From an uncultured Chloroflexia bacterium (GTDB taxonomy: Bacteria; Chloroflexota; Anaerolineae; CG2-30-64-16): a stretch of DNA of 64,000 nt. Made by a program: the position numbers and the translations under genes. Shown piece after piece: positions 39,819 to 53,800 of this stretch (position 1 is its first letter; each line of letters opens with the position of its first letter). The stretch is taken from assembly GCA_963774265.1 (NCBI GenBank), contig CAVZDU010000005.1, forward strand, positions 320,001-384,000. Direction: 5' to 3'. The notes below the pieces were generated by a model, which did not search any database, was not told the DNA's origin, and saw nothing but the letters and a program-made list of their open reading frames with translations.

Positions 39819-39852
39819 AAACACCCGAAGGGCCTGGAAACCCTTCGGGTGT
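39819..39852 (-). terminator. Intrinsic terminator after the small secreted protein gene
   Basis: aacacccgaaggg / cccttcgggtgtt stem with minus-strand T tail. Confidence 0.75.
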
Positions 39853-39930
39853 TGATCCATACTGTTTGATCGCCCGGTGTCACTCAGGGGTCACCGGCTC
39901 TCTACGGCTGCTTGTTCAGTAGCCGCCTCC

Positions 39931-40260
39931 TCATTGCACCGCACCTTGCGGCTGCGCCCTCAGTTGCTGCTCGGCCATTTTCTGATACCGCTCCCCCATC
40001 GCCACCCAGCGCGCCTTGAACGCCTCGAAGGCCCGCTGCTGCTTGAGTGCAGCCTGTGCCGCCTGCAGCTTCTGATAGTACAAGCTCATCGCCGCCCAAC
40101 GTGCTGTTTCGGCGGCACGCGCATTATGCGTCATCACCACCGTGGCCGAATTATCCGCATGAACGACGGACGACGTAAAGACGGCCTCTCGAATAGTCAG
40201 TCCCACTACCGCTACCAACGCAATGACGATCAACATCTTGAACCACCGATTCGCTTTCAT
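39931..40260 (-). CDS. Small secreted or membrane-anchored protein with two ARWxAM..YQK repeats
   Basis: Hydrophobic N-terminus ending VHA; RBS ggagg; ARWAAMSLYYQKL and ARWVAMGERYQKM. Confidence 0.75.
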   Translation of the reverse strand: MKANRWFKMLIVIALVAVVGLTIREAVFTSSVVHADNSATVVMTHNARAAETARWAAMSLYYQKLQAAQAALKQQRAFEAFKARWVAMGERYQKMAEQQLRAQPQGAVQ

Positions 40261-40383
40261 CCTAGCCTCCAAACCAGTTTGGCGTTCGCTTGACTGCGTT
40301 CCGCCGTATTGATGCTCTCACGATAGCACGGCGGCGCTTGCCAGGCTTGCCATTTCCTACCAAAAATCTCCAAGAGGTCCCTG

Positions 40384-40413
40384 ATTGTATTATTCTGACA
40401 AATATAGTACAAT
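40384..40413. promoter_or_regulatory. Symmetric bidirectional sigma70-like promoter
   Basis: Plus strand TTGTAT-N17-TACAAT; minus strand TTGTAC-N17-TACAAT over the same 30 bp. Confidence 0.6.
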
Positions 40414-40450
40414 AACAGTACTTTCAAGGTGAGTTTCCAGAGGAAGCACT

Positions 40451-43400
40451 ATGCCAGCCATTCCGTCCGGCACGTTAGAGAAATTCACGACTTTTGGCGA
40501 TCTGCTGCGCTACCTGAGACGCCGCGCGGGCCTCACGCAGTTGGAGCTGTCGATCGCAGTCAACTACAGTGACGCCCAGATCAGCCGGCTCGAACAGAAT
40601 CTGCGGCTGCCCGACATCCCCACGATCGAGGCGCGCTTCGTTTCGGCGCTTGGGCTGGAAGATGAACCCAAGGCCGTCGCGCGGCTGCTGGAGCTGGCTG
40701 CCAACGTCCGCCGCGAGGACGCACCCGGGCCGGGGCTCTGTCCCTACAAAGGATTGGATTGTTATGAGGAAACGGACGCGGATCTGTTCGTCGGGCGCGA
40801 AACGCTGACCGCGAAGCTGATCGAGCGCGTCCTTACGCTCAGCTCCGGCCCCATGACGGGTCCCTCGCGATTCCTCGCCATCATCGGGGCTTCGGGCAGC
40901 GGCAAATCCTCCCTCGTCCGGGCCGGCTTGGCGCCTGCGCTGCGCTGGAACCGGGTCTCGGCGGGGTGGCCCATCCACGTCTTCACTCCCACGGCCCATC
41001 CTCTCGAAAGCCTGGCCGCCAGTTTGACGCACGACGCAGGCTCCGTGGCAGCCACGGCCAGCCTGATGGATGACCTGGCGCAGGAGCCGCGCAGCCTGGG
41101 CCTCTTCAGCCGGCGGGTGTTGAAACTGTCCGGCGCGTCGCATCTCGCACTGGTGGTCGATCAGTTCGAGGAGTTGTTCACGTTGTGCCGGTCTGATGAC
41201 GAACGATCCATGTTCATCGATAACCTGCTCACCGCGGCGAGCGAGACGGACGGCCGCGTGGTCGTCGTCATCACCCTGCGCGCGGACTTTTATTCCTATT
41301 GTGCGGACTACCCACAACTACGGGAGGCGTTGGCCGGGCAGCAAGAATACATCGGCGCGATGGATGCGACGGAGCTGCGCCGTGCCATCGAGGAGCCTGC
41401 TCGCCGCGGGCGGTGGGACCTTGAGCCCGGCCTGGTCGATCTGCTGCTGCGCGATGCAGGCCAAGAGCCGGGTGCGCTTCCGTTGCTGTCACATGCCTTG
41501 TGGGAGACGTGGCAGCGCCGGCGGGGACGCACACTCACACTGAGCGGATACACCTCATCGGGCGGTGTGCGTGGGGCCATCGCCGAGACCGCGGAGTCCG
41601 TGTTTGCGGATCAGTTCACGGCCGAACAGCGAAAGATCGCGCGTCGGATCTTCCTGCGCCTGACTGAGCTGGGCGATGAGACCGCGACGGGCGACACGCG
41701 GCGCCGCGCCACGTTTGACGAATTGATCGCGAAACCGGATGAAGCGGCCGTCACGCAGTCTGTGTTGACGATTCTGGCCGACGCCCGTCTGATCACCACC
41801 AGCGAGCACTCTGCCGAGGTGGCGCACGAGGCGCTCATCCGTGAATGGCCGACGTTGCGCGGCTGGCTCACGGAGAATCGGGAAAGCCTGCGCCTGCACC
41901 GGAACCTCGCCGACGCGGCGCTCGAATGGCTGAAGGCGGGCCGCGAGCCGGACTTGTTGTACCGCGGTGCGCGGCTCTTCCAGGCACGTGAATGGGCCGC
42001 GGCCTACGATGAAGAGCTGAACGCTCAGGAGCGCGAGTTCCTGGCTGCATCCAGTAGTCTCAGCGAACGCGAGGTTGCGGAGCGCGAGGAGCAGCGCCAG
42101 CGTGAGCTCGTCGCCGCGCAGAAGCTGGCCGATGCCGAAAGGCAACGAGCTGAGGAGCAGTCCTGTTATGCTGCACAGCTTCGCAAGCGGGCCGTCTTTC
42201 TGGCCGGGGCATTCACCGTGGCGCTGGCGATGGCATTTGTGACGCTCTATTTCGGTTCGCAGGCGCGGCAGGCCGCGGCCGCGGCGCAAAACGAGCGCCG
42301 CATCGGTTTCTCGCGGGAACTGGCCGCGGAGGCGATCAACAACCTGGCCGTAGACCCCGAGCTGAGCATTTTGCTCGCGATGCAAGCGGTGTCGGTGACC
42401 TATGCTCAGGACCGGACCGAGACGGCCGAGGCAGAAGACGCCCTGCGCCGCGGCCTGTTGGCATCGCGCGCGCGGCTGACCCTGTCGCCTTCTGGCTCCA
42501 AGGGCCGGGCCTGGGCCGTGGCCTTCAGTCCCGCGCCTCCTGGCGGCGGCACAGACGGCGAGCTCCTGGCCGCCGCCAGCGATGACGGAACCGCGCATAT
42601 CTGGTCCGCCGCGACGGGCCACGAGCTGCTGGTCCTGCCCACCAACGCCACGCGCGGGCACCAGGGCATCGCCTTTAGCCCGGCGCCGCCGGGCGGCGGC
42701 ACAGGCGGGACGCGCCTGCTCACAGCCGGCGAAATGGGCCTGGCCAAGGTGTGGGATGCGGAGACGGGTGCGGCACTGCTGAACCTGATCGGCCACACGA
42801 ACTGGGTTACGGGCGTTGCCTTCAGCCCGGATGGGCGACGCCTCGCCACGGCCAGCGAGGATCGGACGGCAAGAATCTGGGACGCGGTGACAGGCCAGCC
42901 CCTGCTTGTCTTAACGGGCCACACAGCCGAGGTGTCCGATGTGGCGTTCAGCCCAGACGGGACGCGCGTGGCCACAGCCGGGGCGGACGGGATTGCGATC
43001 GTGTGGGATGCGGCGAGCGGCGAGCGGCTGCTCACCCTCTCCGGCCACACCAACGGCGTCGTCGCCATCGCGTTCAGCCCCGCGCGGCCTGGCGGCGGCA
43101 CAGACGGCGCGCGCCTGGCCACGGCCGGTGACGACGGGACGGCCAGGCTGTGGGACGCGACAGGCCGGCTGCTCCTGACCCTGCGCGGTCACACGGATGC
43201 GGTCTCGGATGTGGCCTTCAGCCCGGATGGACGGCGGTTGGCGACGGCCGGTGTCGACGGCAGGGTGAAGCTCTGGGACGCCGCAACCGGGCAGGAGTTG
43301 CTGACCCTCTCCGGCCCGTCGGGCGCGGTCTCTGGCCTGGCCTTCAGCCCGGATTGCCCGACGCCTGCTGGGGATGCTGCGCAAGACCAACTGGGCGCCT

Positions 43401-45622
43401 CGTCACCTGCGGAGTTGTGCGGGACCCACCTGGCCACGGCGCACCTGGATGGGACGGCCAAGATTTGGAACACCTCCTTTGCTCGCGAATTGCTCACGGT
43501 GGCCGCGCCCTCCGCCTCCGCGGTAGCGGTCAGCCCAGGCGGCGCTCGCCTGGCCACCGGCCTGCCGGATGGAACGGTGCAGGTGCGGGATGTCGCAAGC
43601 CCACCTGGCGCCGGTGAGGTCGCCGGCAGGCTGCTTATGGCATGGCACGCGCATGACGGAAGGATCACAGCCCTGGCCTTCAGCCCGGACGGGGAGCAGC
43701 TCGCGACAGCGGGAGAAGACAAGGCGGTGATCCTGTGGGACCCGGCCACCGGGGCGAAGCTCCGCGCACTGGCTGGCCAGGCCGGCCAGGTCCTCGCGGT
43801 CGTCTTCAGCCCAGGCGGCGAGCGCTTGGCCACCATTGGCAGGGATCAAGCCGTCAGGGTGTGGGATGTTGCCTCCGGTCGGCTGTTGCAGACGCTGCCC
43901 CTCTCCACCTGGGGCTCTGCTGTCGCCTTCAACCAGGACGCAACGCGTGTCGCGGCGGGCTTGAACGATGGGACGGCGAAGGTCTGGGATGTAGCGGCGG
44001 GCGACGAAGTCCTGGTGGCGCGCGGTCACGCGGGTGGGGTCTGGGGCGTCGCCTTCAGCCCGGCGCCACCGCCGTCAGGCGGCGCCGGTACAGGTGGCGG
44101 CGCCGCTGGCGAGCTCCTGGCCACCGCCGGCAACGATGGGACAGCCAAGGTGTGGGATGCCGCGCCCCCTGGAGATGGCGCCCACACTGCCAGGGAGCTA
44201 CTCACGTTGGCCGGTCACAACGGCCCGGTCAACGGCATCGCGTTCAGCCCGGCGCCACCAGGCGGCGGCACAGGTGGACTGCTCCTGGCCACTGCGGGCC
44301 AGGATGGAACGGCGAAGCTCTGGGATGCCCGCACCGGCCGGGAGGTGCTTACCCTGTACGGCCAGGCCGATGCGGTAGCTGCCGTCGGCTTTGCCTCAGG
44401 CTGCGAGGAGGCCGGGTGCCGGCCACAACTGTTCACGACGAGCGTCAACGGGATCGTGCGCGCCTATCTGCTGCAGATCGAAGACCTGATGGACCTGGCT
44501 GCCGCGCGCCTGACGCGCTCCCTGACGCCTGCGGAGTGCCGGCAGTACCTGCACCTGATGCTCGAGCAGTGTGGTGACGAGGCTACGGCGGTGACCGCAC
44601 CCGCGACCAGCGCGGCAGCAGCGCCGGTTTCCGTGCTGCCCACTCAGGCGGGGCCCGCCCGCGATAGCATTCAGGGCTTCAAGGTTTGCGAAGTAACCGA
44701 CTCGAGCGGCGTGAACGACGGCTTCTACAACCAGGGCGCCTTCCGGGGCATGCAGGATGCCGCGGCCAGGTTGGGATTGTCGTACGCGGTTCTCGAATCA
44801 CAGCAGCCGGCGGACTATGAGATCAACATCGCTAAGGCGGTCGAGTCCGGTTGCCATCTCATTGTGGCGCCGATCGGGAGCTATTTCGGGGAAATCATCA
44901 AGGCTGCGGCTGCCGGCAATCCCGATCGCAAGTTTCTGACCGTGGAGTGGGCCGAGGTCGTGCCGCAGGATAATGTCTGGGTGCAAACGTACGCGGTCGA
45001 CCAGGCAGGCTTCCTCGCCGGCTATCTCGCGGCCGCGGTTACGAAGACCGGTAAGGTGGGGACATTTGGCGGCGTTGATTTTCCCCCGGTGACCGACTTC
45101 CTGGACGGGTTCAGCCTGGGCGTGGCCCACTACAACGAACAGCACCGGGCGCAGGTCCAGGTGCTCGGGTGGGACGTCCAAAGGCGCGACGGCCTGTTCG
45201 CCGACAGCTTTACGGACACGCGCCTGGGCCGCCAGATCGGCGTCCGGTTGATGGATGAGGGTGCGGACATTCTCCTGCCGGTGGCGGGGTCTGTCGGCAT
45301 GGGGACTGCGGCGGCGATCAAGGAGCGCGGGAACGCCTATCTCATCGGCGTGGATACCGATTGGGCGCTGACTGCTGCTGAGTACGCGGACATCGTGCTG
45401 ACCAGCATCGAGAAACGCGTGGATGTGAGCGTGGCGTCTGCGGTCGAGGATCTGGCGGCCGGCACGTTCACTGGAGGCCCGCACCTCGGCACGCTGGAGA
45501 ACGGCGGCGTCAGCATCGCGCCCTTCCACGGCCTGGATGGCCTGGTCACACTGGAGATCAAGGCCGAGCTGGCGCAGGTCAAGGCCGGCATCATCGCGGG
45601 TGAGATCAAGACGAAGCCATAA
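40451..45622 (+). CDS. XRE-HTH + STAND NTPase (nSTAND1-like) + TM + WD40 propellers + BMP/PnrA-type solute-binding domain
   Basis: FGDLLRYLRRRAGLTQ; CPYKGL...FVGRE, GASGSGKSS, VVDQFEELF, TLRADF, ALPLLSHAL, AHEALIREW; about 14 WD40 repeats; VNDGFYNQ, GFLAGYLAA, IGVDTD, LTSIEK, GTLENGGV. Confidence 0.9.
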   Translation: MPAIPSGTLEKFTTFGDLLRYLRRRAGLTQLELSIAVNYSDAQISRLEQNLRLPDIPTIEARFVSALGLEDEPKAVARLLELAANVRREDAPGPGLCPYKGLDCYEETDADLFVGRETLTAKLIERVLTLSSGPMTGPSRFLAIIGASGSGKSSLVRAGLAPALRWNRVSAGWPIHVFTPTAHPLESLAASLTHDAGSVAATASLMDDLAQEPRSLGLFSRRVLKLSGASHLALVVDQFEELFTLCRSDDERSMFIDNLLTAASETDGRVVVVITLRADFYSYCADYPQLREALAGQQEYIGAMDATELRRAIEEPARRGRWDLEPGLVDLLLRDAGQEPGALPLLSHALWETWQRRRGRTLTLSGYTSSGGVRGAIAETAESVFADQFTAEQRKIARRIFLRLTELGDETATGDTRRRATFDELIAKPDEAAVTQSVLTILADARLITTSEHSAEVAHEALIREWPTLRGWLTENRESLRLHRNLADAALEWLKAGREPDLLYRGARLFQAREWAAAYDEELNAQEREFLAASSSLSEREVAEREEQRQRELVAAQKLADAERQRAEEQSCYAAQLRKRAVFLAGAFTVALAMAFVTLYFGSQARQAAAAAQNERRIGFSRELAAEAINNLAVDPELSILLAMQAVSVTYAQDRTETAEAEDALRRGLLASRARLTLSPSGSKGRAWAVAFSPAPPGGGTDGELLAAASDDGTAHIWSAATGHELLVLPTNATRGHQGIAFSPAPPGGGTGGTRLLTAGEMGLAKVWDAETGAALLNLIGHTNWVTGVAFSPDGRRLATASEDRTARIWDAVTGQPLLVLTGHTAEVSDVAFSPDGTRVATAGADGIAIVWDAASGERLLTLSGHTNGVVAIAFSPARPGGGTDGARLATAGDDGTARLWDATGRLLLTLRGHTDAVSDVAFSPDGRRLATAGVDGRVKLWDAATGQELLTLSGPSGAVSGLAFSPDCPTPAGDAAQDQLGASSPAELCGTHLATAHLDGTAKIWNTSFARELLTVAAPSASAVAVSPGGARLATGLPDGTVQVRDVASPPGAGEVAGRLLMAWHAHDGRITALAFSPDGEQLATAGEDKAVILWDPATGAKLRALAGQAGQVLAVVFSPGGERLATIGRDQAVRVWDVASGRLLQTLPLSTWGSAVAFNQDATRVAAGLNDGTAKVWDVAAGDEVLVARGHAGGVWGVAFSPAPPPSGGAGTGGGAAGELLATAGNDGTAKVWDAAPPGDGAHTARELLTLAGHNGPVNGIAFSPAPPGGGTGGLLLATAGQDGTAKLWDARTGREVLTLYGQADAVAAVGFASGCEEAGCRPQLFTTSVNGIVRAYLLQIEDLMDLAAARLTRSLTPAECRQYLHLMLEQCGDEATAVTAPATSAAAAPVSVLPTQAGPARDSIQGFKVCEVTDSSGVNDGFYNQGAFRGMQDAAARLGLSYAVLESQQPADYEINIAKAVESGCHLIVAPIGSYFGEIIKAAAAGNPDRKFLTVEWAEVVPQDNVWVQTYAVDQAGFLAGYLAAAVTKTGKVGTFGGVDFPPVTDFLDGFSLGVAHYNEQHRAQVQVLGWDVQRRDGLFADSFTDTRLGRQIGVRLMDEGADILLPVAGSVGMGTAAAIKERGNAYLIGVDTDWALTAAEYADIVLTSIEKRVDVSVASAVEDLAAGTFTGGPHLGTLENGGVSIAPFHGLDGLVTLEIKAELAQVKAGIIAGEIKTKP

Positions 45623-45711
45623 GATGGACGCGCGGACGGGATTCGTGACCGCCCACTATAGTCACGCACCGCTTGGGTTGCGGCGGTGCGTGAAATCGCC
45701 GACGGGTGCAT

Positions 45712-48700
45712 TCACGGGACGTTCCGCGCGATGAAGGGCAGATATTGTGACTGCGTGGCTTGTGTGAAGTAGCGCCCTCGATTGTCAGCGACCGCCACAT
45801 TCCCAGCGCCGTCCACTGCTTGTATGAAGTAGGCCAGGCCAAATTGAGCGGGCAGTGAACCTTCCCATATCTTCGGATCCTGGCGCGGCGCTAGCTCGAC
45901 GGCCTGCCATATGCCGTCACCAACCGTGTAGGTCGCCACGACCCGAACGACCCCGGAGAAGTCCGTTACATCCACCAGCACGGTTGTCGAAGCGTCGCCC
46001 TGCTGCTGATCGCGCACGGCCCAGATGCTGGGCGGGATGACATCGCCGGACGCGGAATAATAGACCATGTACGTCATTTCGTTGAACAGCCGCTCTACCC
46101 CCTGCGTCGCGCCGATCGCCTGGTATTGTGCAGGGATCAAGATCAATCGCTGGAGCAGGCCTTCGGGCGCGCGCACCGTATTGATCACGCCCCAGGATGA
46201 CGGTGTCCAGACCCTTGTGTCGAAGCCGGGATCGATCGCGGCGCCAACGCTGCGCGTGTCGTCGCTGGTCGGCTGCGTAAGCACAGGGGAGAACATGGCG
46301 TGGGTCTCGTAGCGCCCCCCCTCGAACAGTGTCCCGCGCGCCACCGTGCCCGCCAATGTGACACTGATCCCGGTGCGCGGCTGGATCGGCTGGCCCGGCG
46401 CCACCTGCGTTTCACCGCCGATGCTGTAGTAAGTCCGCGTTGTGTCGCCTGAAGATACCGTGTTGGGCGCATCATAGTTCGGCGCCACCAGCACCCGGCG
46501 GCAGATCAGACCCTCAGGGCAATTCTCGGCCTCGCTCGGTTGTCCGGCGGCGATATCGCCGCGACCGTGTCGCGCGATCGTGTCGGTCGTCGCGGCAGCC
46601 GCCGCGCCCGGCATCTGCACGCGATACATAGGCAGTCCATACAGGGTGGCTACGGCCAACACCTTTTCGTCGTAGGGTGTCAGCGAATGGACGCCGACCG
46701 AGTTGAAGTATTCGATCTCAGCCCCGCGTAACGCCTGGCCCACTGCGCCATCCGCCCGCAGGTGCTGGGCAAAGAGCGTCATCAATCGTTCCGAGTAACC
46801 GATGGCATTGGCGTCCCCGTAGCCATATCCCGTGTTGGCGAGGTATGTGACGCCCTTCCCCACGAGCGCCTGTGCGAAATCGAGCTGGTGGGCAGTGGCC
46901 TGCTCGTCGGGCACGGGGAGGCCGGAGTGGCAGCCCACGGAGAAGACCACGGTGCCAGAGAGTTGGCTGCTTGCGCGCACCTGCTCGGGATCCAGATCCC
47001 CCCCGGCGCCCTCGGCCGGGAGGGCGTGCCAGTGCTCGAAATGCGCGTTGATCGAGCTCAGGTCGTGACGGTCATCCAGCCATTTGGCCTTTAGCGCGGC
47101 CGCCTGCCAGGAGTCGTTGATCAGGCTGGTGTCGGTGTCCAGGCCGGCGCTCTGCATCGCGTCCGCCACAGCACGGGCCTGATCCTTGAGAAAGTCGTAG
47201 CCGACGGCCAGCCCGGTCTGCGCGGCGAGAACCGGCTGCTGCAGGAAGACATCGATCGCCGCGGCGATCTCTTCCGGGGTCTCCACGAGCCGGCCGATGG
47301 CGTAGTCGGGCAGGGTCAGCTCTCGCCCGCGCCAGGAGAACGGGGAGAACCCGGCGTAGTAGGTATCACTCAGGAAGTAGCGCCCCCGTAAGCTGGCGCC
47401 CAGGGGAGAGTCGTCAGCCAGGAAAGCGTGGTAGTCCTCTTCGTTGGCCACCGGCACCTCGTCGGGGATGCGACGGAAAGGCACCACTTCATCATCCCCG
47501 GCGATCACCAGGTTCTCCAGATCGGGATAGGCGGGGCGGAGCGCTGACAGCAGGGCCTTGATCGCGGCCGCGACCAGGTTGGCGTGCGCCGGATCGGACC
47601 GGCTACCATCCCACAGCCCGTAGACGGCCCTGACTGGGCCGTATGTGTTCAGGTCGATTACCTCGCCGGCAACCTGGGGATGCCGCGCCAGCTCACCGAG
47701 TTTATCCAGAAGCGCTTGTGTCCGCGCAACGCCGTAGCGTGCCTTGAGCCGCGTCCCGTTGGTCAGGATCAGCGTCTTGACCCCCCCGTGCGCGGCGTCC
47801 GGCGCCGCGAAGACCGGCGGCTGAAACCCGGGGTCCAACACCGCCTGGCCTTGTGTCACAGTGATCGCCAGGGTGTAGGCGTGCTGGGGATCGTTGGCGC
47901 CGTTGTGGCCGGCCACCAGCAGGTGATACCAGCCGCTCTGGTCCCAGACGTCCGTGCCGACCGTCTCCGATTGGACGCCGGTGCGGCAACTGGCGCGCAG
48001 CAAGGCGCCGGTGTCTGCCGCCAGGCCCACGCCGGCCACCTGCCCCAGGTACGTCGGTGAGCAGCTCTCGCCGCTCCCCAACTCGCCGGGGATGCCCTGC
48101 AGGTTCCCGATCCCCTGGAGGTTGCCGATGCCTTGCAGGTTCCCGACGCCACCGGGCGAGGCCCCCGGGGCTTGCTCCAGTCCGCCAAACAAGAACGCAT
48201 CGTAGTCCTGCGGCAGGGCGCTCAGTGTGGCGGTGATCGCCGCGTTGCGGGCACCCACCGGGATGCGGAACCACTGCGGATCTCGCTCGCCGGAGATGGT
48301 GAAGTGATGAACGCCGGGCACCAGAACGGGTGCGGTGAGCCAGGCGTCCTTCGCACCGGGGTCCGTGCGCCAGTTGAGCACGTTCACGTCGCCGCTGACC
48401 GCATCGCCCGCGCCGGCCGGGTTGCCCGGCGTATGTGGCCCCGTGGCGCTGCCCCACCAGGCGCCGGACGCGTCGATGGGACTGTCGCTGCCGTTTTCGA
48501 TCGCGAACCCGCCGTTGCCCGCCAGCGAGTTGCCCACAAGTGTCAGGGCGCCGCCGCGCGCCAGGATGCCGTCCTCCCGGCTGGCGGCGATGGTGCTGGA
48601 GATGACGTTGAGCGTGCCTCCATCCTGCGTGATGCCGTTTGCCGCGAACTCGACGCTGGTGTAGCTCAGCGAACCGGTGCTGCCGGCTGAGAATGAGAGC

Positions 48701-50787
48701 CCTTTCCAATCACCCGGCAGGGGCGCTGCGAAGCGCCCGGCGCTGGTGAAACGGACCGGGCCTGTTTCACTCCCAATGGCCACCAGCACTCCGGCGATCT
48801 GGGCGCCCCGGCCGAAGTCGAACTGTACGTTCACGCCCGGCGCCAGCGTCCACGTCCGGCCGGCCGGTACGGAGATGTCGTCGCTGACAACGCGGTAGGT
48901 GTCCAGGTCGCCCTGGGGTGTCCACGTCTCGTCGCGCTCACCGACTGTTCCGCCGGTCACCTGAACGACGTTCTCGCCGTTGGCCGAGAAACGGTTGTCC
49001 ACCAGGGGATTCCCCAGGGTCAGCCGAGCCGCCAGGCCGCCTTGATTAGAGATCGTGTTCTTTTGGAAGACGTTGCCGGTGCAATTCGACAGTAGCTCCA
49101 GCCCAACCGTGCGGTTGAACTCGATCAGGTTGCCGGCCGCGGCATCGGCCCCGCCAATCTGGTTGTTCGCGGCGTCATCCAGCCTGATGCCGGCGTTGTT
49201 CGGGACCGGCTTGGCGCCGGACGCGTCCGCCCCGATGCGATTGCCCGCGATCTGGTTGCCTGTTACGAGGAAATCCGATCCTTTGAGCACGATTCCTTCG
49301 CCTCGGTTGCCGCTAATCAGGTTGCCAGCCGTACCCGTGCCGACGATATTGTCGCTGGCGCCGCCGTGGAGCTTCACGCCCGCGAGGGCGTTCGGCACAG
49401 CATGGCTGCCCGTGACGTCGGTGCCGATATAGTTGCCCAGCACCTGGTTACCCGATGTGCCGGGCGATTCGAGGGCCAGGCCGTTGCTCCCGTTGCCGCT
49501 GATGACATTGCGTTCTGCTGGCGTTTGTCCGCCTATCACGTTGTCGGCACTGCCGAGGTGAATGAAGATCCCATCGTCGCCGTTTCCGAGAGCTGCCTGG
49601 CCCGCGGCATCGACGCCAATCCGGTTGCCCGCCACCACGTTGCCCGCCGCGCCTGGATTTTGGATCGAGATGCCGTTGCCCTGATTGCCGCTGATCAGAT
49701 TGGCCGCGCCGTAGCCCGTTCCGCCGATCATGTTCTGGCCCGCGCTGCCGAGGTGGATGCCATCCCCGCCGTTTGGCAACATGTCCGTGCCCGTGGCATT
49801 GGCCCCGATGATGTTGCCCGCGACCCGGTTGTGTTCCGCGCCGGTTTCCTGGATCCAGACGCCGCTCTGGATGTTACCGCTGATAAGATTGCCCGCGCCA
49901 GCCTCGCCGATCACGTTGTGGTCCGCATCGGAGACCAGGATTCCATGTCCCTGGTTGCCGAGCGAGGCGCGGCCCGTCGCATCGGCGCCGATGATGTTGT
50001 CCAGGACGCGATTGGCGGACGTGCCACTGATTTGGATGCGGACGCCGTCCTGCCGGTTGCCGCTGATCAGGTTGCCTTCCACCACGTTCTCATTAGCGCC
50101 GTCGCTGATAATCACGCCGTTTTGTCCGTTTGCCATGGCGCGCAGGCCTGCCAGGTCGGCGCCGATGATGTTGCCCAGCACGCGGTTAGCCGAGGTGCCG
50201 GTGTCTTGGATGAGGACTCCATCCTCCCGGTTGGCGCTGATGAGGTTGCCCTGTCCCAGGGGCGCCGCGCCGATAGTTCGCGATCCACCGATGACGGCAT
50301 TTCGCGCGCCGTCGGTCAACGCGATGCCATAACGCGGGAAGTTCAGGACTTGCAGCCCGCGAACTGTCACGCCCTCGGCGCCCTTGATGCTGAGGCCGGA
50401 GCTGTACTGCGCCCCGCTCCCCTCCAGGATCACGCCGGCGTTGCTGGCGTCGACTGTCAGTGACCCGGCCGTGATCACGGGAAGCCCGCTCTGCAAGGAG
50501 ATCGTCATGGGAGCTGAAGGAGGGAACACCGCGGGGTCGAACGTGATGACGTCGCCTGCCTGCGCATCGGTGAGCGCCGCGCGCAGCGTGCCCAACCCGC
50601 CGTCAGCCGGGCTGGTGACGACGACGCTGCGCGCGGCCGGCGCCAGGACCTGGCCCACGATAGACTGGGGCGGCGCAAAGCCTAGCGCCAGGAGGACGAC
50701 GAAGACGATGCGCAGGCAGGGGAGCCCTGCGTATCCGCTTTTCGTTCGTGAACGCTGCGCCACGGTGGTGGTTCTCCTGGCAGCCAT
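45712..50787 (-). CDS. Large secreted protein: parallel beta-helix repeats + PPC-like domain + peptidase C25 (gingipain-like) domain, C-terminal YLPFI motif
   Basis: VVTSPADGGLGTLRAAL, repeated NLISGN/GNxIG; LVIAGDDEVVPF, LSDTYY, AIGRLVETP, SINAHF, FSVGCHSG, YLANTGYGY, LYGLP. Confidence 0.8.
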   Translation of the reverse strand: MAARRTTTVAQRSRTKSGYAGLPCLRIVFVVLLALGFAPPQSIVGQVLAPAARSVVVTSPADGGLGTLRAALTDAQAGDVITFDPAVFPPSAPMTISLQSGLPVITAGSLTVDASNAGVILEGSGAQYSSGLSIKGAEGVTVRGLQVLNFPRYGIALTDGARNAVIGGSRTIGAAPLGQGNLISANREDGVLIQDTGTSANRVLGNIIGADLAGLRAMANGQNGVIISDGANENVVEGNLISGNRQDGVRIQISGTSANRVLDNIIGADATGRASLGNQGHGILVSDADHNVIGEAGAGNLISGNIQSGVWIQETGAEHNRVAGNIIGANATGTDMLPNGGDGIHLGSAGQNMIGGTGYGAANLISGNQGNGISIQNPGAAGNVVAGNRIGVDAAGQAALGNGDDGIFIHLGSADNVIGGQTPAERNVISGNGSNGLALESPGTSGNQVLGNYIGTDVTGSHAVPNALAGVKLHGGASDNIVGTGTAGNLISGNRGEGIVLKGSDFLVTGNQIAGNRIGADASGAKPVPNNAGIRLDDAANNQIGGADAAAGNLIEFNRTVGLELLSNCTGNVFQKNTISNQGGLAARLTLGNPLVDNRFSANGENVVQVTGGTVGERDETWTPQGDLDTYRVVSDDISVPAGRTWTLAPGVNVQFDFGRGAQIAGVLVAIGSETGPVRFTSAGRFAAPLPGDWKGLSFSAGSTGSLSYTSVEFAANGITQDGGTLNVISSTIAASREDGILARGGALTLVGNSLAGNGGFAIENGSDSPIDASGAWWGSATGPHTPGNPAGAGDAVSGDVNVLNWRTDPGAKDAWLTAPVLVPGVHHFTISGERDPQWFRIPVGARNAAITATLSALPQDYDAFLFGGLEQAPGASPGGVGNLQGIGNLQGIGNLQGIPGELGSGESCSPTYLGQVAGVGLAADTGALLRASCRTGVQSETVGTDVWDQSGWYHLLVAGHNGANDPQHAYTLAITVTQGQAVLDPGFQPPVFAAPDAAHGGVKTLILTNGTRLKARYGVARTQALLDKLGELARHPQVAGEVIDLNTYGPVRAVYGLWDGSRSDPAHANLVAAAIKALLSALRPAYPDLENLVIAGDDEVVPFRRIPDEVPVANEEDYHAFLADDSPLGASLRGRYFLSDTYYAGFSPFSWRGRELTLPDYAIGRLVETPEEIAAAIDVFLQQPVLAAQTGLAVGYDFLKDQARAVADAMQSAGLDTDTSLINDSWQAAALKAKWLDDRHDLSSINAHFEHWHALPAEGAGGDLDPEQVRASSQLSGTVVFSVGCHSGLPVPDEQATAHQLDFAQALVGKGVTYLANTGYGYGDANAIGYSERLMTLFAQHLRADGAVGQALRGAEIEYFNSVGVHSLTPYDEKVLAVATLYGLPMYRVQMPGAAAAATTDTIARHGRGDIAAGQPSEAENCPEGLICRRVLVAPNYDAPNTVSSGDTTRTYYSIGGETQVAPGQPIQPRTGISVTLAGTVARGTLFEGGRYETHAMFSPVLTQPTSDDTRSVGAAIDPGFDTRVWTPSSWGVINTVRAPEGLLQRLILIPAQYQAIGATQGVERLFNEMTYMVYYSASGDVIPPSIWAVRDQQQGDASTTVLVDVTDFSGVVRVVATYTVGDGIWQAVELAPRQDPKIWEGSLPAQFGLAYFIQAVDGAGNVAVADNRGRYFTQATQSQYLPFIARNVP

Positions 50788-50809: not shown

Positions 50810-53800
50810 CTACCTCAGCACTATCGGCAGGTAGATCTGTCTCAGGTGCGTGTCGAGGCCGAACGAGAACTCGGACGTGGTTCCCTGCGGATCCGTGGCC
50901 GTGGCGTGCAAGAACGGCAGCGGCGGCGGGCTGCTCAGCGTCACCGTGAACGTGTTGGTCGCGTTCGCGGTGGCAGCCGCCAGGTAGACCGTACCCGCCG
51001 GCTGCGCGTCGAGGTTGGCGAAAACCTCCACCCGACAGCCCGCGCACGCGGCTCCGGTCAGCGTGCTGCTCTCGATCGTGTACTGGCCGAGGACTGGGGC
51101 GTTCACCGGCCCAATCGGTTGCGGTGTGTCCACGAAGTCAATCGGGAGCCCGGCGTTGTGGTGGATCGCGTTACGAGTGATCGTGTTGCGCAGGGTCTTC
51201 TCACCGCTGATGATCACGCCGGCCAGGTCGTTGAAGAGGATCGAGTTGTACGGCCCGAGGATGTTGCCCTGGCTCTCCCCGGTGAGTACGATGCCGCCAT
51301 TCAGGTTACCCAGATCGCCCGTGCCCGCTGCGCGGGCGCCGATGATATTGCCGGCCACCCGGTTGAGGGTTGTCCCGGTGTTCTGAATCCATACGCCAGC
51401 CCCGCTGTTGCCACTGATCAGGTTGCCCTCGCCCGCCGCCTCCCCGCCCACAACGTTGCCGCTGGCGGCAAAACAGATCGCCACCCCATCCGCCGCATTG
51501 GGTATGGCGTGAGCACCGCTAACATCCGTGCCGATGTAGTTGCCAAGCACGTTGTTCCCGGTCGTCCCCAGGTTTTTGATGTAAACGCCGGCCATCTCGT
51601 TCCCGCTGATGATGTTGCGCATACCGGCCTCTGCACCGCCTACCACGTTGTCAAATGCGCCGAAACCGATATGGACGCCGGCCTGCCCGTTACCGAGCGC
51701 TTTCGCGCCGGTTACGTCGGCGCCGATAGTGTTGCCCAGCACGCGGTTGCCGGTGACATCCTGGTTGATATTGACGCCCATCTCGGCGTTTCCGCTGATG
51801 AGGTTGCCATCCCCCGGCGTCTCCCCGCCGACCAGGTTGTCGCTGGCGCCCTGGGAAATGATCACCCCATCCTTCGCGTTGGCGAGCGCGGCCGTGCCGT
51901 TCACGTCTGTGCCGATGTAGTTGCCCTGCACCCGGTTGCCGGTCGTCCCCGGGTCTTGTAGCTGTACCCCATACAGACCGTTGCCGCTGATGACATTGCG
52001 CGCGCCTGCCGTGTTTCCACCGACCACGTTGCTGGTGGACCCATACATGATCAGAACACCGTTCAGTCCGTTGCCGAGCGATTGTGCGCCCGTGACATCG
52101 GCGCCGATGGTGTTGCCCTTAACTTCGTTGGCCGTGGTCCCGGCGCCCTGCATGAAAACCCCGTGCTTAGCATTGCCGCTGATAATGTTAGCCGCAGCAG
52201 GCGTTTCTCCGCCCACCACGTTTCCGCTGGGACCGTCGATAAGGGCAACGCCATCACCCTGGTTGCCGGGCGCGGTTGTGCCGTTCGCGTCTGTGCCGAC
52301 GTAATTGCCCAGCACCTGGTTGCCGGTCGTCCCTGGATCCTGCAGCCACACGCCGCCGTTGATCAAGTTGCGCGTGCCAGGAGCTTCCCCACCGACCACG
52401 TTGTTGCTGGCCGTGAAGCCGATGAACACGCCTGTCTCGCCGTTGGTCAGGGAATGCGTGCCCGTTGCGTCCAGGCCGATAGTGTTGCCGACGATCCGGT
52501 TGTGATCGGTGCCGGCTTGCTGGAGAGACACCCCGTGCCCGCCGTTGCCACTGATAACGTTGGCCGCACCCGGCGTCTCTCCGCCGATGATGGTGTCGTG
52601 CGCGCCGAGGGCCAGCACGATGCCCACGTCCCCATTGCCTAAGCTGCCCGTGCCCGTACCATCGGTGCCAATGTAGTTGCCCAATATCCGGTTGCCGGCT
52701 GTGTCTGCGTCCTGGAGGTAGATGCCGGCCTCATCAGTCTCATCGTTCCCATCGCTATTTCCGCTGATCAAATTGCGTGCACCCGGTGTATCGCCGCCCA
52801 CCACATTGTTGCTGGCGCCGGCCATGATGACGATGCCGTCTCCGGAGTTTGCCACGGCCTTCGTGCCTGTCGCGTCCGCGCCGACGGTGTTGCCCAGAAT
52901 CCGATTGTCGTCGGAACCCAAACCCTGTATGGTGATGCCCCGGTCGCCGTTGCCGCTGATGACGTTGCCCGCGCCCGCTGCGTTCCCACCGATGGAGTTG
53001 CCGCCCGCGCCACCGAGGATAGTGATGCCGTCGTTGCCGTTGCTTAGCGCACTGATACCAGTCACATCAACGCCGATCAGGTTACCCAACACCTGGTTTC
53101 CCGTGGTCCCCGCGTTTTGGATCCACACGCCGGAACCTCCGTTGCCGCTGATCAGGTTGCCCGCGCCCGCGGACGTCCCGCCGATGGTATTGCCGTGAGC
53201 GCCAAAACCAATCAGGAGGCCAGCCTCTTCGTTGCCTAGGGCGACGATCCCTGAGGCGGCCGTGCCGATGAAGTTGCCCGTCACCCGGTTGCCCGTCGTA
53301 TCTGCGTCCTTGATGAGCACACCGGACAGGCCGTTGCCGCTGATTACATTCCGCAACGCGACCGTTGCGCCGCCCACCACGTTATCGTGCGCGCCGAAGC
53401 CGATAAGGACGCCCAGTTGGCCATTGCCCAGATCGGCCGCACCGTTCACTTCCGTGCCGATGATGTTCCCCACGACCCGGTTGCCCGAGCAGTCCTCGTT
53501 GAGGTTGACGCCGATCCGGCCGTTGCCGCTGATCAGGTTGCCCGTGCCCGGCTCCTCCCCGCCCACCAGGTTGTCATCGGCCGCCAGCAGGACCACCCCA
53601 TCGACGCTGTTTGGGATGGCGCTTGTGCCGTTCAGGTCTGTCCCGATAAAGTTGCCCTGGATGCGATTGTTGATGACGCCCGGCCCCTCCAGCCAGACGC
53701 CCGTATCCCCGTTCCCGCTCACCAGGTTGCCCTGACCCAGGGGCCCCGTGCCGATCCCTCGATCGCCGCCGATGACGCAATCGTGCGCGCCGTCGAGCAG

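Follow-up and report, generated by a model that had tools for sequence, protein, structure and literature searches.

The window, i.e., the entire 64,000-nucleotide stretch analyzed here, includes at positions 40451-45622 a real gene whose product is predicted to be a single-pass membrane protein, with a DNA-binding switch inside the cell and propellers plus a nucleoside-binding-type sensor outside. Upstream of it lie an operator-like repeat element and a small divergent gene, and the locus comprises the following features:

40451-45622, plus strand: receptor-regulator gene, 1723 aa plus stop, ATG start, zero internal stops
40493-40666, plus strand: XRE-type HTH, aa 15-72 (Pfam HTH_31)
40742-41950, plus strand: nSTAND1 NTPase, aa 98-500 (Pfam PF20703)
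42023-42187, plus strand: single long helix, aa 525-579, leading into the membrane helix (AlphaFold2 model, pLDDT 84-95)
42191-42253, plus strand: predicted transmembrane (TM) helix, aa 581-601, AVFLAGAFTVALAMAFVTLYF (hydropathy, family conservation)
42521-44425, plus strand: WD40 region, aa 691-1325, with blades enough for two 7-bladed propellers (Pfam, blade-end motif)
44426-44575, plus strand: C-terminal cap shared by the core family, aa 1326-1375; C1363 and C1374 are invariant (alignment)
44576-44680, plus strand: Pro/Ala/Thr-rich linker, aa 1376-1410 (9% mean identity)
44681-45619, plus strand: BMP/PnrA-type binding domain, aa 1411-1723, with invariant C1413 and C1468 (Pfam, structure model)
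40391-40396, plus strand: predicted -10 hexamer TATTCT, family consensus tgtgcTAtnCT, 17-18 nt past the last repeat (consensus)
40338-40373, plus strand: operator-like element, direct repeats TTGCCA / TTGCCA / CTACCA / TCTCCA (alignment, genome searches)
40310-40329, no strand assigned: conserved block upstream of the repeats, family consensus TTTTGATGcnTTCAATGTAGC (upstream alignment)
39934-40260, minus strand: divergent partner gene of class B, 108 aa plus stop (its ATG is preceded by GGAGG)
39820-39853, minus strand: terminator-like hairpin after the divergent gene, 15-pair stem and T-run (sequence)

The receptor frame can be extended upstream by at most 6 codons (to 1729 aa), and GAGGAAG stands 4 nt 5' of its ATG. 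A preliminary description of this DNA had read it as one uninterrupted 1723-aa ORF, and this is borne out: neither a stop nor a frameshift occurs ahead of the BMP domain, and the fusion repeats across independent assemblies. The chain starts with an XRE HTH and an nSTAND1 NTPase, continues through a long helix and a hydrophobic helix into 14 WD40 blades, and closes with a two-Cys cap, which a Pro/Ala linker joins to a BMP/PnrA domain. When this architecture was compared against protein databases (158 matches in the 947-3016-aa length band, with counts here and below taken from the 119 other proteins listed), WD40 and BMP were found together in 112 of the 119, in NCBI, JGI, ENA, and Logan assemblies. 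The nearest fused relative is a 1702-aa protein with 79% identity in the BMP region, and the only names that members carry in their source databases are "BMP family ABC transporter substrate-binding protein" or "WD40 repeat protein/basic membrane lipoprotein Med". Six additional complete fused ORFs were found on metagenome contigs, and one in genome G036.

Complete relatives include the BMP domain in 6 of 15 cases and end at the cap in the other 9, so that BMP is, judging from these sequences, an optional add-on to an HTH-nSTAND1-TM-WD40 core. The "two sensor types" of the preliminary description fit this picture, with BMP as the optional module behind the cap. N-terminal modules also vary within the BMP subfamily, which comprises HTH, HTH with Pkinase, and BTAD forms; among the matches listed, 7 proteins are BTAD-headed (~1719-1787 aa) and 11 are kinase-headed (~1879-1903 aa). 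Across 401 genomes of the class, a BMP match within a STAND-fusion frame was present only in G000 and G036 among the matches listed, i.e., the family is patchy in reference genomes, yet common in metagenome protein sets. A long open frame in genome G364 that matched the BMP query turned out to be a chain of four binding domains and not a STAND fusion. A scan of genome contigs yielded mostly distant BMP-less relatives among the matches listed, with a helix at the TM-equivalent place in 24 of 38 loci (counted from coordinates), and extended the nSTAND1-TM-WD40 core to Streptomyces and cyanobacteria. Relatives in other phyla have long N-terminal regions instead of the HTH, and the bacterium's own genome also encodes a non-HTH nSTAND1 paralogue. 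Based on these sequence comparisons, the family is widespread; it is undescribed as far as our literature search shows, and the source-data tables of two eLife papers may list similar architectures.

In the N-terminal part, the HTH was recognized by HTH_31 (PF13560; 5.5e-10, 39.8 bits against a cut-off of 27) and by HTH_3 (PF01381; 25.8 bits against 23). It is the most conserved region of the protein in the family alignment (mean identity 82%), and the recognition-helix residues Y39, S40, S45, R46, L47, and E48 are invariant. We infer that this domain binds DNA in a sequence-specific manner, for which the invariant recognition helix and the invariant repeat element linked to the gene provide indirect support. 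The NTPase matches positions 1-378 of the 379 in the nSTAND1 profile (PF20703; 1.9e-126, 423.2 bits against a cut-off of 27.1), with GASGSGKSS at aa 146-154 as its Walker A motif and DQFEE at aa 237-241 as its Walker B motif. Both are invariant or nearly so, G146-S154 and D237-E240 being fully invariant in alignments of 38 and 37 sequences. The AlphaFold2 model (pLDDT 87.5) had ORC/Cdc6, NLRP14, CED-4, NRC2, and Apaf-1 as best Foldseek matches, with low TM-scores of 0.23-0.36.

The hydrophobic helix that had been proposed between the STAND and WD40 regions was located at aa 581-601, and is both strongly hydrophobic and conserved in the family. Hydropathy is the basis of its assignment as a TM helix: the Kyte-Doolittle 19-residue mean reaches 2.28, and no other segment of the protein exceeds 1.6 (next 1.48). 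A helix with a Kyte-Doolittle value ≥ 1.8 was detected at the matching place in 105 of the 112 WD40 + BMP proteins among the matches listed, and all 15 complete relatives downstream of the promoter element displayed one TM at aa 571-594. RKR directly precedes the helix, and Lys and Arg in the flanking 15 residues average 4.6 on the N side versus 2.1 on the C side across the family, with a modest bias (4 versus 2) in the window protein itself (P0001). HTH domains and P-loop NTPases require the cytoplasm, and the native place of BMP proteins is outside it. The four cysteines C1363, C1374, C1413, and C1468 were kept in 106 of 106 TM-bearing members, and lost in 3 of the 4 full-length members (P0013, P0105, P0117, and P0119) in which the TM is cleanly deleted. 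This co-variation of cysteines with TM presence supports a location of the WD40 region, cap, linker, and BMP domain outside the cell, as predicted from sequence. The remaining TM-less member, P0013, retains all four cysteines and the binding pocket, so that a cytoplasmic form does exist in the family.

The WD40 region was identified with an E-value of 1.8e-98 over 9 scored Pfam stretches, and includes 13 [VIL][WR][DNS] blade ends at aa 717-1290 as well as a closing blade identified by eye. Five of the blades contain an APPGGGTGG-type insert. Tandem Repeats Finder detected no DNA-level tandem repeats in 40000-46000, indicating that the blades were not recently homogenized. Mean family identity is 47% for WD40 and 54% for BMP, and the linker, at 9%, is the least conserved stretch of the protein. 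BMP-less relatives terminate at the preceding cap with ...ECxxYLHxxxCPxEP, and this cap is probably clipped by a disulfide.

Behind the linker, the full BMP/PnrA-like domain anticipated in the preliminary description was recovered as Pfam Bmp (PF02608) at aa 1412-1690, with an E-value of 3e-36 and 125-130 bits against a cut-off of 24.1. The NCBIfam equivalog model NF047927 ("putative B6 ABC transporter SBP") scored well below its cut-off (64.3 bits against 400). The top match in a PDB sequence search was Lbp (7x0r, 1.4e-31), followed by BmpA, PnrA, TmpC, and BmpD (down to 1.9e-17), and the structure model (pLDDT 93.2) adopts a type I periplasmic-binding fold with TM-scores of 0.76/0.78 to 7x0r. 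Its top fold matches are nucleoside complexes throughout (TM-score 0.74-0.78, Lbp, PnrA, and BmpD best), and BMP-fold relatives of lower similarity bind other ligands, namely RfuA with riboflavin (4iil) and AtzT (6pi5). Lbp of C. thermocellum contained guanosine, according to the available portion of that report (PMC9601137). The conserved nucleoside pocket, as given in the sections at hand of PMC13325309, consists of F27, D98, F151, F176, V224, D225, and K242, along with N28 in BmpD; F27 and F176 form the aromatic sandwich, and D98, D225, and K242 bind ribose. These positions correspond in the receptor to Y1426, E1499, F1550, F1587, V1634, D1635, K1655, and N1427, respectively, to which D1423 adds a further pocket residue; of the seven canonical positions, five are thus identical and two conservative (F to Y, D to E). 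In 38 aligned members, the same eight positions display F (28) or Y (10), D (26) or E (10), F (36), F (38), V (38), D (38), K (37), and N (38). The proposal that this domain reads extracellular nucleosides therefore fits both the conserved pocket residues and the best fold matches, and a nucleoside or close analogue is the ligand that we infer from sequence and model.

Like PnrA/TmpC, BmpA/BmpD, and Lbp, the receptor BMP keeps the fold, the sequence, the aromatic sandwich, and the ribose-binding D and K. It differs from the canon by Y for F27, E for D98, and an insert of 8-12 residues ahead of F1587 (the F176 equivalent) relative to PDB relatives, and its D-x-D motif is followed by W, in place of the Q of Lbp and BmpA. 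Unlike PnrA, BmpA, and Lbp, it is not a free lipoprotein, but a C-terminal module starting at aa 1411 of a 1723-aa chain, with neither a lipoprotein signal nor adjacent transporter genes. Free BMP relatives share the KVC...CDLIV Cys pair; the nearest are 48-57% identical, and an ABC ATPase gene follows both of the two examined. The domain was probably recruited from ABC binding proteins of the nucleoside type that occur in free form in this bacterial class.

In the element upstream of the receptor gene, four phased direct repeats make up a 24-nt core, with the CCA of each repeat at 40341, 40350, 40360, and 40370 (spacing 9, 10, and 10 nt) and the last repeat at the -35 position of the predicted receptor promoter. 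The block at 40310-40329, which reads GTGCTATCGT on the minus strand, is possibly the -10 of the divergent gene. Across 68 unique sequences, the repeat element is nearly invariant and its flanks are variable. A 25-mer of the element is present as a single copy in each of G000 and G036 (0 matches for the reversed control), and the element was found in 5 of 401 class genomes, 38-77 nt ahead of an HTH-nSTAND1 start in 4 of the 5. In metagenomes, 77 of 80 matches had an HTH-nSTAND1 homologue (68-90% identity) downstream, and the remaining 3 had ≤ 251 nt of downstream sequence. From the whole 5.5-Mb genome, a 41-nt position weight matrix picked out the gene's own site alone, at 56.1 bits, with the runner-up scoring -5.7; if the element is an operator, the regulon would thus be the local gene pair only, a thin output for a 1723-aa receptor. 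No common 9-mer was found upstream of the Streptomyces relatives, so that the element is specific to the Anaerolineae subfamily. XRE HTH proteins typically bind inverted repeats as dimers, and the putative operator of this receptor differs in being made of direct repeats.

The divergent partner protein begins with an N-terminal signal or anchor (MKANRWFKMLIVIALVAVVGLTIREAV...) followed by two copies of an A-R-W-x-A-M...Y motif, and is 39% identical over 122 aa (E 6.5e-17) to the homologue at the same place in locus L124. We surveyed 81 loci with ≥ 250 nt of upstream sequence by BLAST against two partner classes, and recognized a divergent gene for a predicted secreted protein or lipoprotein at 53. 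Class B occurred at 37 loci, 75-95 nt from the repeat element, a DUF5640 lipoprotein took its place at 16, and neither class was matched at the other 28. A conserved Sec-type leader is common to the class-B proteins, as are tandem units (1-7, some near-identical) split by basic RxR motifs, and some partners combine the same leader with a different Cys-containing cargo. Class-B partners had no Pfam match above cut-off, and the protein atlas gave zero usable match for the small partner. A predicted complex of receptor residues 602-1375 with partner residues 25-108 yielded ipSAE values of 0.00 and 0.00, which, with controls absent, counts neither way. No conserved neighborhood was found past the partner gene in the window and G036: the window neighbors are a PLP decarboxylase, an aldose epimerase, and a beta-helix/C25-like protein, and those in G036 are ABC exporter-type genes, a permease, and a DEAD helicase. 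The neighboring ORFs scanned in the window and in G036 likewise included no ABC importer permease or ATPase, nor any other obvious target gene. Family membership, the conserved promoter element, and the divergent gene for a putatively secreted partner all go beyond the preliminary description.

The interpretation we favor, with a probability of roughly 0.55, is that of a membrane-tethered, self-regulating one-component STAND transcription switch which would read extracellular nucleosides and a WD40 ligand. Ligand occupancy outside the cell, i.e., a nucleoside or analogue closing the BMP domain and a second ligand on the WD40 face, may alter the packing or clustering of the ectodomain, and the long helix and TM segment would relay this change to the NTPase. 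The latter would then oligomerize in an NTP-dependent manner, and the oligomer would align several HTH domains along the four direct repeats, which lie on the same face and overlap the -35 of the receptor's own weak promoter. The outcome would be a switching of the divergent promoter pair, i.e., of the receptor gene and the small gene for the putatively secreted partner. The architecture, its recurrence, the TM conservation, the co-variation of cysteines with the TM, the pocket conservation, the repeat-gene linkage, and the conserved partner gene are observed features of this family; the ligand, the HTH-DNA contact, and the direction of regulation enter the scheme as putative elements.

Several known systems resemble parts of this design. 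MalT, AfsR/SARP-type regulators (BTAD + NB-ARC + TPR), and GutR are soluble, with sensor repeats that bind ligands in the cytoplasm, and STAND regulators are expected to oligomerize in an NTP-dependent manner on several direct-repeat sites near -35. The receptor shares with MalT, AfsR/SARP, and GutR the order of DNA-binding domain, STAND NTPase, and repeat sensors, and includes BTAD-headed members in its family. The four direct repeats upstream of its gene, with spacings of 9, 10, and 10 nt and an end at -35, would be candidates for sites of this kind. In classical STAND proteins, however, the sensor repeats touch the NTPase and keep it off, and such contact is impossible across the conserved TM that separates NTPase and repeats here, so that coupling must differ. 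ToxR and CadC are membrane-bound one-component regulators with winged-helix domains and small periplasmic sensors, in which an NTPase is absent. The predicted topology of the receptor is similar (cytoplasmic N-terminal DNA-binding domain, one TM helix, sensor outside), and would likewise have DNA bound at the membrane, but the receptor has an XRE HTH, an NTPase, and WD40/BMP sensors. RRNPP regulators have cytoplasmic TPR sensors which bind re-imported peptides, and lack both NTPase and membrane helix; the receptor likewise fuses an XRE HTH to a repeat sensor and adjoins a small gene with a predicted secretion leader, but its sensor is WD40, lies beyond a TM helix, and comes with an NTPase. Med, which is linked to the kinase KinD, is a BMP-fold protein used for signaling and not transport (PDB 2hqb, "Transcriptional activator of comK gene"; TM-score 0.77/0.86 to the receptor BMP), although it is a separate lipoprotein working with a histidine kinase, and its sequence similarity is weak (1.4e-05).

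Among described nSTAND1 NTPases (PF20703; Kaur, Iyer, Burroughs, and Aravind 2021, PMC8195603), the receptor's full-profile match, intact Walker A and B motifs, WD40 repeats behind the NTPase, and occurrence in filamentous or multicellular taxa are all familiar. The accessible part of that study describes nSTAND1 proteins as conflict-system switches of the cytoplasm whose N-termini are effectors or adaptors, and does not mention the receptor architecture, which differs by its DNA-binding N-terminus, the TM between NTPase and repeats, and the terminal solute-binding domain. Planctomycetota Ser/Thr kinases, in the available sections of PMC11032199, combine one TM helix with predicted periplasmic WD40 or TPR arrays, and thus resemble the receptor in having predicted WD40 arrays beyond a single-pass helix; kinase-headed members also occur in the receptor family. 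As presented there, however, these proteins have kinase output only, with neither STAND, HTH, nor solute-binding domain.

The conserved partner gene raises another interpretation, namely a peptide-signaling loop in which the secreted partner or its peptides are the WD40 ligand, the receptor induces both genes as quorum-sensing circuits do, and BMP only gates the response through nucleosides. We consider this unlikely overall, even though the putative precursor is built from tandem A-[DE]-x-A-R-W-x-A-M-G-E-Y-Y units with RxR on either side, 1-7 of which follow the conserved Sec-type leader in class B, this class sits 75-95 nt from the repeats at 37 of 81 loci, and both partner and WD40 region are predicted outside the cell. 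Divergent genes with a common control region, the layout seen here, are typical of autoinduction circuits, and WD40 propellers are well-known peptide binders. Yet the partners are not one family, with DUF5640 lipoproteins at 16 of 81 loci and other Cys-containing cargo behind the same leader in some cases, a variety which would suit a regulated output better than a cognate ligand; in addition, 28 of 81 loci matched neither class by BLAST, and the partner has neither a family name nor an atlas match. A fuller version, which we regard as decidedly improbable, would be an undescribed cell-to-cell signaling module of filamentous Chloroflexota with four working parts acting together. A secreted precursor would carry ARWxAMGEYY-type tandem units between basic cleavage-like sites; the extracellular WD40 propellers of the STAND receptor would bind these units, and the multivalent ligand would cluster receptors; clustering would drive NTPase oligomerization across the membrane and align HTH domains on the four phased repeats; and both genes would be auto-induced, with the optional BMP domain gating by nucleosides from lysed neighbors.

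The receptor could also be a conflict or immunity sensor, i.e., an NLR-like guard as other nSTAND1 proteins of multicellular bacteria are, here watching the exterior for an invader- or kin-derived determinant with the HTH as effector arm, an idea to which we give low credence. It draws on the definition of nSTAND1 in counter-invader systems (PMC8195603, in the portion available) and on the EACC1/caspase system, whose variable region includes TM helices with a downstream extracellular periplasmic-binding domain (PMC7159879, in the sections at hand), as well as on the long N-terminal regions replacing the HTH in other phyla, the non-HTH nSTAND1 paralogue in the same genome, and a TIR+SH3+FGE protein 578 nt upstream at one family locus. 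However, the N-termini of the BMP subfamily (HTH, HTH with Pkinase, and BTAD) include zero death effectors, the WD40 region is not hypervariable (its mean identity is near that of BMP, and DNA-level homogenization is absent), the pocket is conserved as for a small metabolite, and the locus lies outside any evident defense island. A tethered transport protein, whose BMP domain would feed nucleosides to an ABC importer encoded elsewhere while the remainder anchors or regulates uptake, appears more doubtful again: the nearest free relatives are true ABC binding proteins with an ABC ATPase gene next to them in 2 of 2 cases, and single membrane-anchored proteins that chain several binding domains are frequent in the class, beside permeases (the G364 locus; P0004-P0007), but an importer permease or ATPase gene is absent from the scanned ORFs beside the fusion at both loci (window and G036), relatives that have the same promoter element mostly lack BMP (9/15), and a 580-aa HTH-NTPase module serves nothing in transport. 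Finally, the chance that assembly or gene calling joined a WD40 protein to a separate BMP lipoprotein is practically negligible. The genome assembly is 84% complete in 10 contigs, and a paralogue elsewhere in it is split over three frames; nevertheless, the fusion is seen in the 112 listed proteins from four assembly sources, the nearest of them 79% identical in BMP, and in the seven complete ORFs from metagenome contigs (six) and G036 (one), the junction is in frame, and the cap is conserved. This recurrence in independent assemblies stands in for read support across the junction.

What is new here is the STAND family with its predicted membrane-spanning form, its linked repeat element, and its conserved divergent partner gene. 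STAND/NLR switches are understood as soluble proteins in which sensor repeats restrain the NTPase through direct contact, and a membrane placed between the two needs another coupling, probably driven by clustering. The locus offers a compact study system, with one protein, a guessable ligand class (nucleosides), one genome-unique promoter element, and one partner gene. The database label "ABC transporter binding protein" is misleading when the metabolism of Anaerolineae from sludge, soil, and sediment is reconstructed. Since the nSTAND1-TM-WD40 core is also found in Streptomyces and cyanobacteria, the principle may extend well past Anaerolineae, and if the receptor and its secreted partner do form a cell-to-cell signaling module, trans-membrane signaling by an NLR-like switch would have been shown for the first time.

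The receptor gene occupies positions 40451-45622 of the forward strand as one uninterrupted frame of 1723 aa, which stays open for six codons upstream of the ATG and no further, and a ribosome-binding site (GAGGAAG) lies 5' of this ATG. The ORF scan, Pfam, and hydropathy all reproduced the coordinates, hydrophobic helix, linker, and domain order of the preliminary description, the encoded parts being:

aa 15-72, + strand, HTH_31 (Pfam)
aa 98-500, + strand, nSTAND1 (Pfam, 423 bits, profile 1-378 of 379)
aa 581-601, + strand, hydrophobic helix (Kyte-Doolittle mean 2.28 over 19 residues)
about aa 700-1330, + strand, WD40 repeats (Pfam)
aa 1412-1690, + strand, Bmp (Pfam, 125-130 bits)

No segment except aa 581-601 lies above a 19-residue Kyte-Doolittle (KD) mean of 1.6. 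Mean identity by part is highest for the HTH (82%), followed by the NTPase (72%), BMP (54%), and WD40 (47%). Five WD40 blades (window 42540-44400, aa ~697-1300) carry a Gly/Pro-rich insert where the family has FSPDG (APPGGGTDG, APPGGGTGG, ARPGGGTDG, APPPSGGAGTGGGAAG, and APPGGGTGG); by a regular-expression count, the receptor of the window is alone among 120 fetched proteins in having ≥2 such inserts.

Relatives were sought with the BMP part (aa 1390-1723) as query against proteins of 947-3016 aa, which yielded 158 matches. This check of domain architecture recovered the same WD40 and BMP combination in 112 of the 119 non-query proteins among the best 120 of these matches, the remaining seven lacking WD40 and consisting of several binding domains in a chain. 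In their source, relatives are named only as 'BMP family ABC transporter substrate-binding protein [Anaerolineae / Anaerolineales]' or 'WD40 repeat protein/basic membrane lipoprotein Med', and the closest among the matches listed is P0003, a database relative of 1702 aa with 79% identity in the BMP part. N-terminal heads vary: as annotated by Pfam among the matches listed, most members carry an XRE HTH, at least 11 relatives of 1879-1903 aa have an added protein kinase, and at least seven (1719-1787 aa) are headed by a BTAD transcription activator. Judged by these annotations, the HTH-nSTAND1-TM-WD40-BMP fusion is a recurrent family and no accident. Outside the window, the same genome holds a second nSTAND1-WD40 gene (G000:C2:766478-770800; 33% identity to aa 246-968) with neither HTH head nor BMP, whose NTPase region switches between three reading frames in a stretch of about 450 nt, reflecting either a pseudogene or assembly errors.

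A single helix (KD ≥ 1.8) is found at the matching place in 105 of the 112 WD40+BMP relatives (best 120 of 158 matches), which, together with the hydropathy of 2.28 in the receptor itself, bears out the TM helix originally placed between STAND and WD40. The seven exceptions comprise three N-terminally truncated fragments and four full-length proteins (P0013, P0105, P0117, and P0119) that cleanly lack the helix together with part of the coiled coil before it. Four cysteines C-terminal to the helix are invariant in a 38-member alignment, namely C1363 and C1374 in the cap that follows WD40, and C1413 and C1468 in BMP. Across 113 WD40-bearing proteins (including the query), this CCCC pattern is present in 106 of 106 helix-bearing members and in one of the four helix-less full-length members; the other three display RRIC, CDFC, and SAFS and have degraded pocket residues as well. 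All four proteins look like cytoplasmic forms derived from the receptor. Secreted binding proteins of the same class, namely the free BMP relatives, share a KVC...CDLIV pair, and cysteine pairs decaying upon helix loss are the pattern expected for disulfides in an extracytoplasmic domain. An HTH and a P-loop NTPase require the cytoplasm, and the family mean of K+R across the helix is 4.6 vs 2.1. Taken together, cysteine/helix co-variation, the cytoplasmic need of HTH and NTPase, and K+R bias support a predicted N-in, C-out topology of the family, based on hydropathy and co-variation, and we consider the architecture and topology of the receptor close to settled. The proposal of a single-chain trans-membrane receptor is thus strengthened by both the recurrent family and the cysteine loss in helix-less variants, and the receptor finding is real.

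Relatives of the core, sought in one genome per species, were detected at a minimum of 38 loci, including some in Streptomyces (four loci), cyanobacteria (Nostoc, Calothrix, Leptolyngbyaceae, and Chroococcales), Thermoleophilia, Pseudonocardiales, and other Chloroflexota. A match to the BMP part was absent from all 38 loci listed (one genome per species); several align as far as residue 1362-1386, i.e., through the cap, and by coordinate arithmetic 24 of the 38 have a helix (KD ≥ 1.8) at the equivalent of aa 500-595. A sample of the Anaerolineae subfamily, consisting of 15 complete ORFs located after the promoter element that precedes the receptor gene, had one helix at aa 571-594 in every case. 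Nine of these ORFs stop at ...ECxxYLHxxxCPxEP (1292-1368 aa) and six run on via the linker into BMP (1601-1706 aa), which argues that BMP is an optional second sensor beyond the normal C-terminus. From its distribution in these sequences, the core predates the BMP add-on and is more widespread. BMP matches at E ≤ 1e-40 occur in 204 of 401 class genomes (including G389, unpublished), nearly all of those listed being either free proteins (350-450 aa) or tandem forms (650-810 aa), with 48-57% identity, and an ABC ATPase gene comes next after the free BMP relative in both cases examined. Among the matches listed from the 401 class genomes, the STAND fusion is restricted to the genome containing the window (G000) and one other, G036. 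As far as these matches indicate, the source of BMP is local, i.e., from the same bacterial class. In Anaerolineae, several solute-binding domains are chained within one protein: a 1542-aa ORF of another class genome (L064:5036-9664, G364; Peripla_BP_6 + Bmp + SBP_bac_3 + SBP_bac_5) adjoins ABC permease genes, the window's genome encodes a 748-aa tandem double BMP (G000:C1:1339343-1341511), and other binding-domain chains are P0004-P0007, P0027, P0113, and P0120.

For the BMP domain, the nearest solved structures by sequence are Lbp of C. thermocellum (7x0r, 1.4e-31) and BmpA (9q1u, 1.3e-23), followed by pneumococcal PnrA (6y9u and related entries, 1.1e-21), TmpC (2fqw, 1.8e-18), and BmpD (6shu, 1.9e-17). 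Guanosine is present in the pocket of crystallised Lbp (PMC9601137). The conserved pocket of BmpA consists of F27, F151, F176, V224, D225, and K242, D98 lies at the ribose, and F27A and F176A abolish binding, N28 being a base contact in BmpD (PMC13325309).

Pocket residues (BmpA unless stated), receptor equivalents from pairwise alignments to solved structures, and counts in the 38-member alignment
F27: Y1426; F in 28, Y in 10
F151: F1550; F in 36
F176: F1587; F in 38
V224: V1634; V in 38
D225: D1635; D in 38
K242: K1655; K in 37
D98: E1499; D in 26, E in 10
N28 (BmpD): N1427; N in 38

AlphaFold2 modelled aa 1405-1723 with confidence (pLDDT 93.2, pTM 0.92). The ten structures closest to this model in fold are of Lbp, PnrA, and BmpD in complex with nucleosides (TM-score 0.74-0.78), with Med (2hqb), the riboflavin-binding RfuA, and AtzT ranking below them. 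Conserved pocket residues and modelled fold both favour the nucleoside-type sensor initially suggested; such binding is thus fairly likely, with a nucleoside or close analogue as the best guess for the ligand. The specificity could have shifted, given the Y and E substitutions, the invariant W that follows D-x-D, and the insertion preceding F1587.

On the cytoplasmic side, invariant or near-invariant Walker A (GASGSGKSS) and Walker B (DQFEE) motifs, conserved in distant relatives too, imply that the receptor NTPase should be active. The recognition-helix residues of the HTH are invariant in the family alignment. A model of aa 1-580 (pLDDT 87.5) displays the HTH, a P-loop core accompanied by helical and small strand modules, and a lone helix (aa 525-579) running into the membrane helix. 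Foldseek returned only generic AAA+/STAND relatives of this model (ORC/Cdc6, NLRP14, CED-4, NRC2, and Apaf-1; TM-score 0.23-0.36) and no close solved structure.

The DNA upstream of the receptor gene shares a 25-mer with that of its G036 homologue, present as a single copy in each genome (reversed control, 0) and matched in 5 of 401 class genomes. Four class-genome matches with ≤2 mismatches end 38-77 nt 5' of the ATG of an HTH-nSTAND1 homologue. Scanning metagenome contigs for exact matches to a 24-nt degenerate core gave at least 80 loci: in 77 of the 80 listed, a homologue (68-90% identity to query aa 1-520) starts 2-101 nt downstream of the core, and the other three have at most 251 nt of downstream sequence. 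The consensus of 68 unique sequences reads cTTACCnnACTTGCCATTTcCTACCAAAATTCTCCAAAa, then about 14 variable bases, then tgtgcTAtnCT. The region includes:

39820-39853, - strand, terminator-like hairpin of the partner gene
39934-40260, - strand, small partner gene with its own GGAGG site
CCA at 40341, 40350, 40360, and 40370, + strand, four direct repeats TTGCCA, TTGCCA, CTACCA, and TCTCCA (consensus mapped on the window)
40391-40396, + strand, TATTCT, predicted -10 (consensus mapped on the window)

The last repeat occupies the -35 position yet is poor as a -35 sequence, a layout suggesting that the promoter depends on an activator. Run over the 5.5-Mb genome, a 41-nt weight matrix retrieved the receptor-gene site only (56.1 bits; next best -5.7). 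By alignment, the repeats are a same-face direct-repeat array, invariant, genome-unique, and linked to an invariant HTH recognition helix, the simplest reading of which is that a receptor oligomer would autoregulate its own gene via the repeats. That the HTH binds them we judge to be about an even chance.

The divergent partner was surveyed at 81 loci with ≥250 nt upstream of the element. Homologues of the window gene (class B) are found at 37, and 16 carry a DUF5640-type lipoprotein of the kind seen in G036 (class A); the other 28 had no BLAST match to either class at 1e-5, most of them having a divergent ORF of 80-200 aa that starts about 75-95 nt from the element. In the window product, two A-R-W-x-A-M...Y units follow a leader (MKANRWFKMLIVIALVAVVGLTIREAV...). 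Class-B members have in common the leader M-x-T-N-R-x-F...L-T-V-R-E-A-V-A-T-S and contain one to seven tandem RSRxA[DE]xARWxAMGEYY units, some nearly identical. Some divergent partners (L075:4897-5244, L080:459-728, L088:566-847, and L100:1544-1885) combine a class-B leader, M.(K/R)NR.FN....AI.L......LTVREA.AT, with other cargo of about 60 aa that includes two Cys and the C-terminus ...GPTGVDGGL..LLS.YRTC.R. Partner proteins are predicted to lie outside the cell, and the partner may be either a ligand of the WD40 ectodomain or a regulated output. Read from its sequence, the receptor locus would be a complete local circuit of phased-repeat promoter element and divergent, predicted secreted partner, both new here.

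The best available explanation, to which we assign a probability of roughly 0.55, is a full chain from outside ligand to promoter switch. A ligand outside the cell would alter the packing or clustering of ectodomains, this change would cause NTP-dependent oligomerisation inside the cell, and the oligomer would line up HTH domains on the phased repeats and thereby switch the divergent promoter pair of receptor and partner genes. Several difficulties weigh on this chain. In STAND proteins the sensor usually contacts the NTPase, which is impossible across a membrane, and the usual targets of XRE domains are inverted repeats, whereas those of the element are direct. Moreover, the sole full operator-like site is the receptor gene's own, and four natural variants lack the helix.

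The product of a 1691-aa gene convergent to the receptor gene (window 45712-50787, - strand) has a signal-like helix at its N-terminus and contains right-handed beta-helix repeats, three tandem GNLQGI units, and a region weakly matching Peptidase_C25 (3.8e-07); the 1209-aa window ORF at 50810-54439 has no Pfam match. A second STAND-type protein of 1243 aa (AAA_16 + TPR, with a MalT-like TPR region) is encoded 9 kb downstream (window 54506-58237, - strand), near a gene for a protein with sigma-70 region 4 (59899-60774, - strand). At another locus (L095:11324-13366), a 680-aa TIR + SH3 + FGE-sulfatase protein, an architecture typical of conflict systems, is encoded 578 nt upstream of a family receptor gene.

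The component parts (nSTAND1, nucleoside-binding BMP proteins, XRE HTH, and WD40) are known. Partial precedents include the soluble STAND regulators MalT and AfsR, membrane-bound ToxR-like regulators, and, for the BMP domain, the BMP-fold signalling lipoprotein Med. In published work, nSTAND1 is already defined (PMC8195603), the EACC1/caspase conflict system has, in its variable region, TM helices with an extracellular periplasmic-binding domain (PMC7159879), and Planctomycetota have single-pass kinases with periplasmic WD40 arrays (PMC11032199). A full-text literature search of main articles returned no published description of the receptor architecture, promoter element, or partner. Beyond the preliminary description, the present analysis adds a recurrent family with optional BMP, topology evidence from natural variants, and a local circuit. 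Overall, the protein is most likely a STAND-type transcription switch that has become a trans-membrane receptor.
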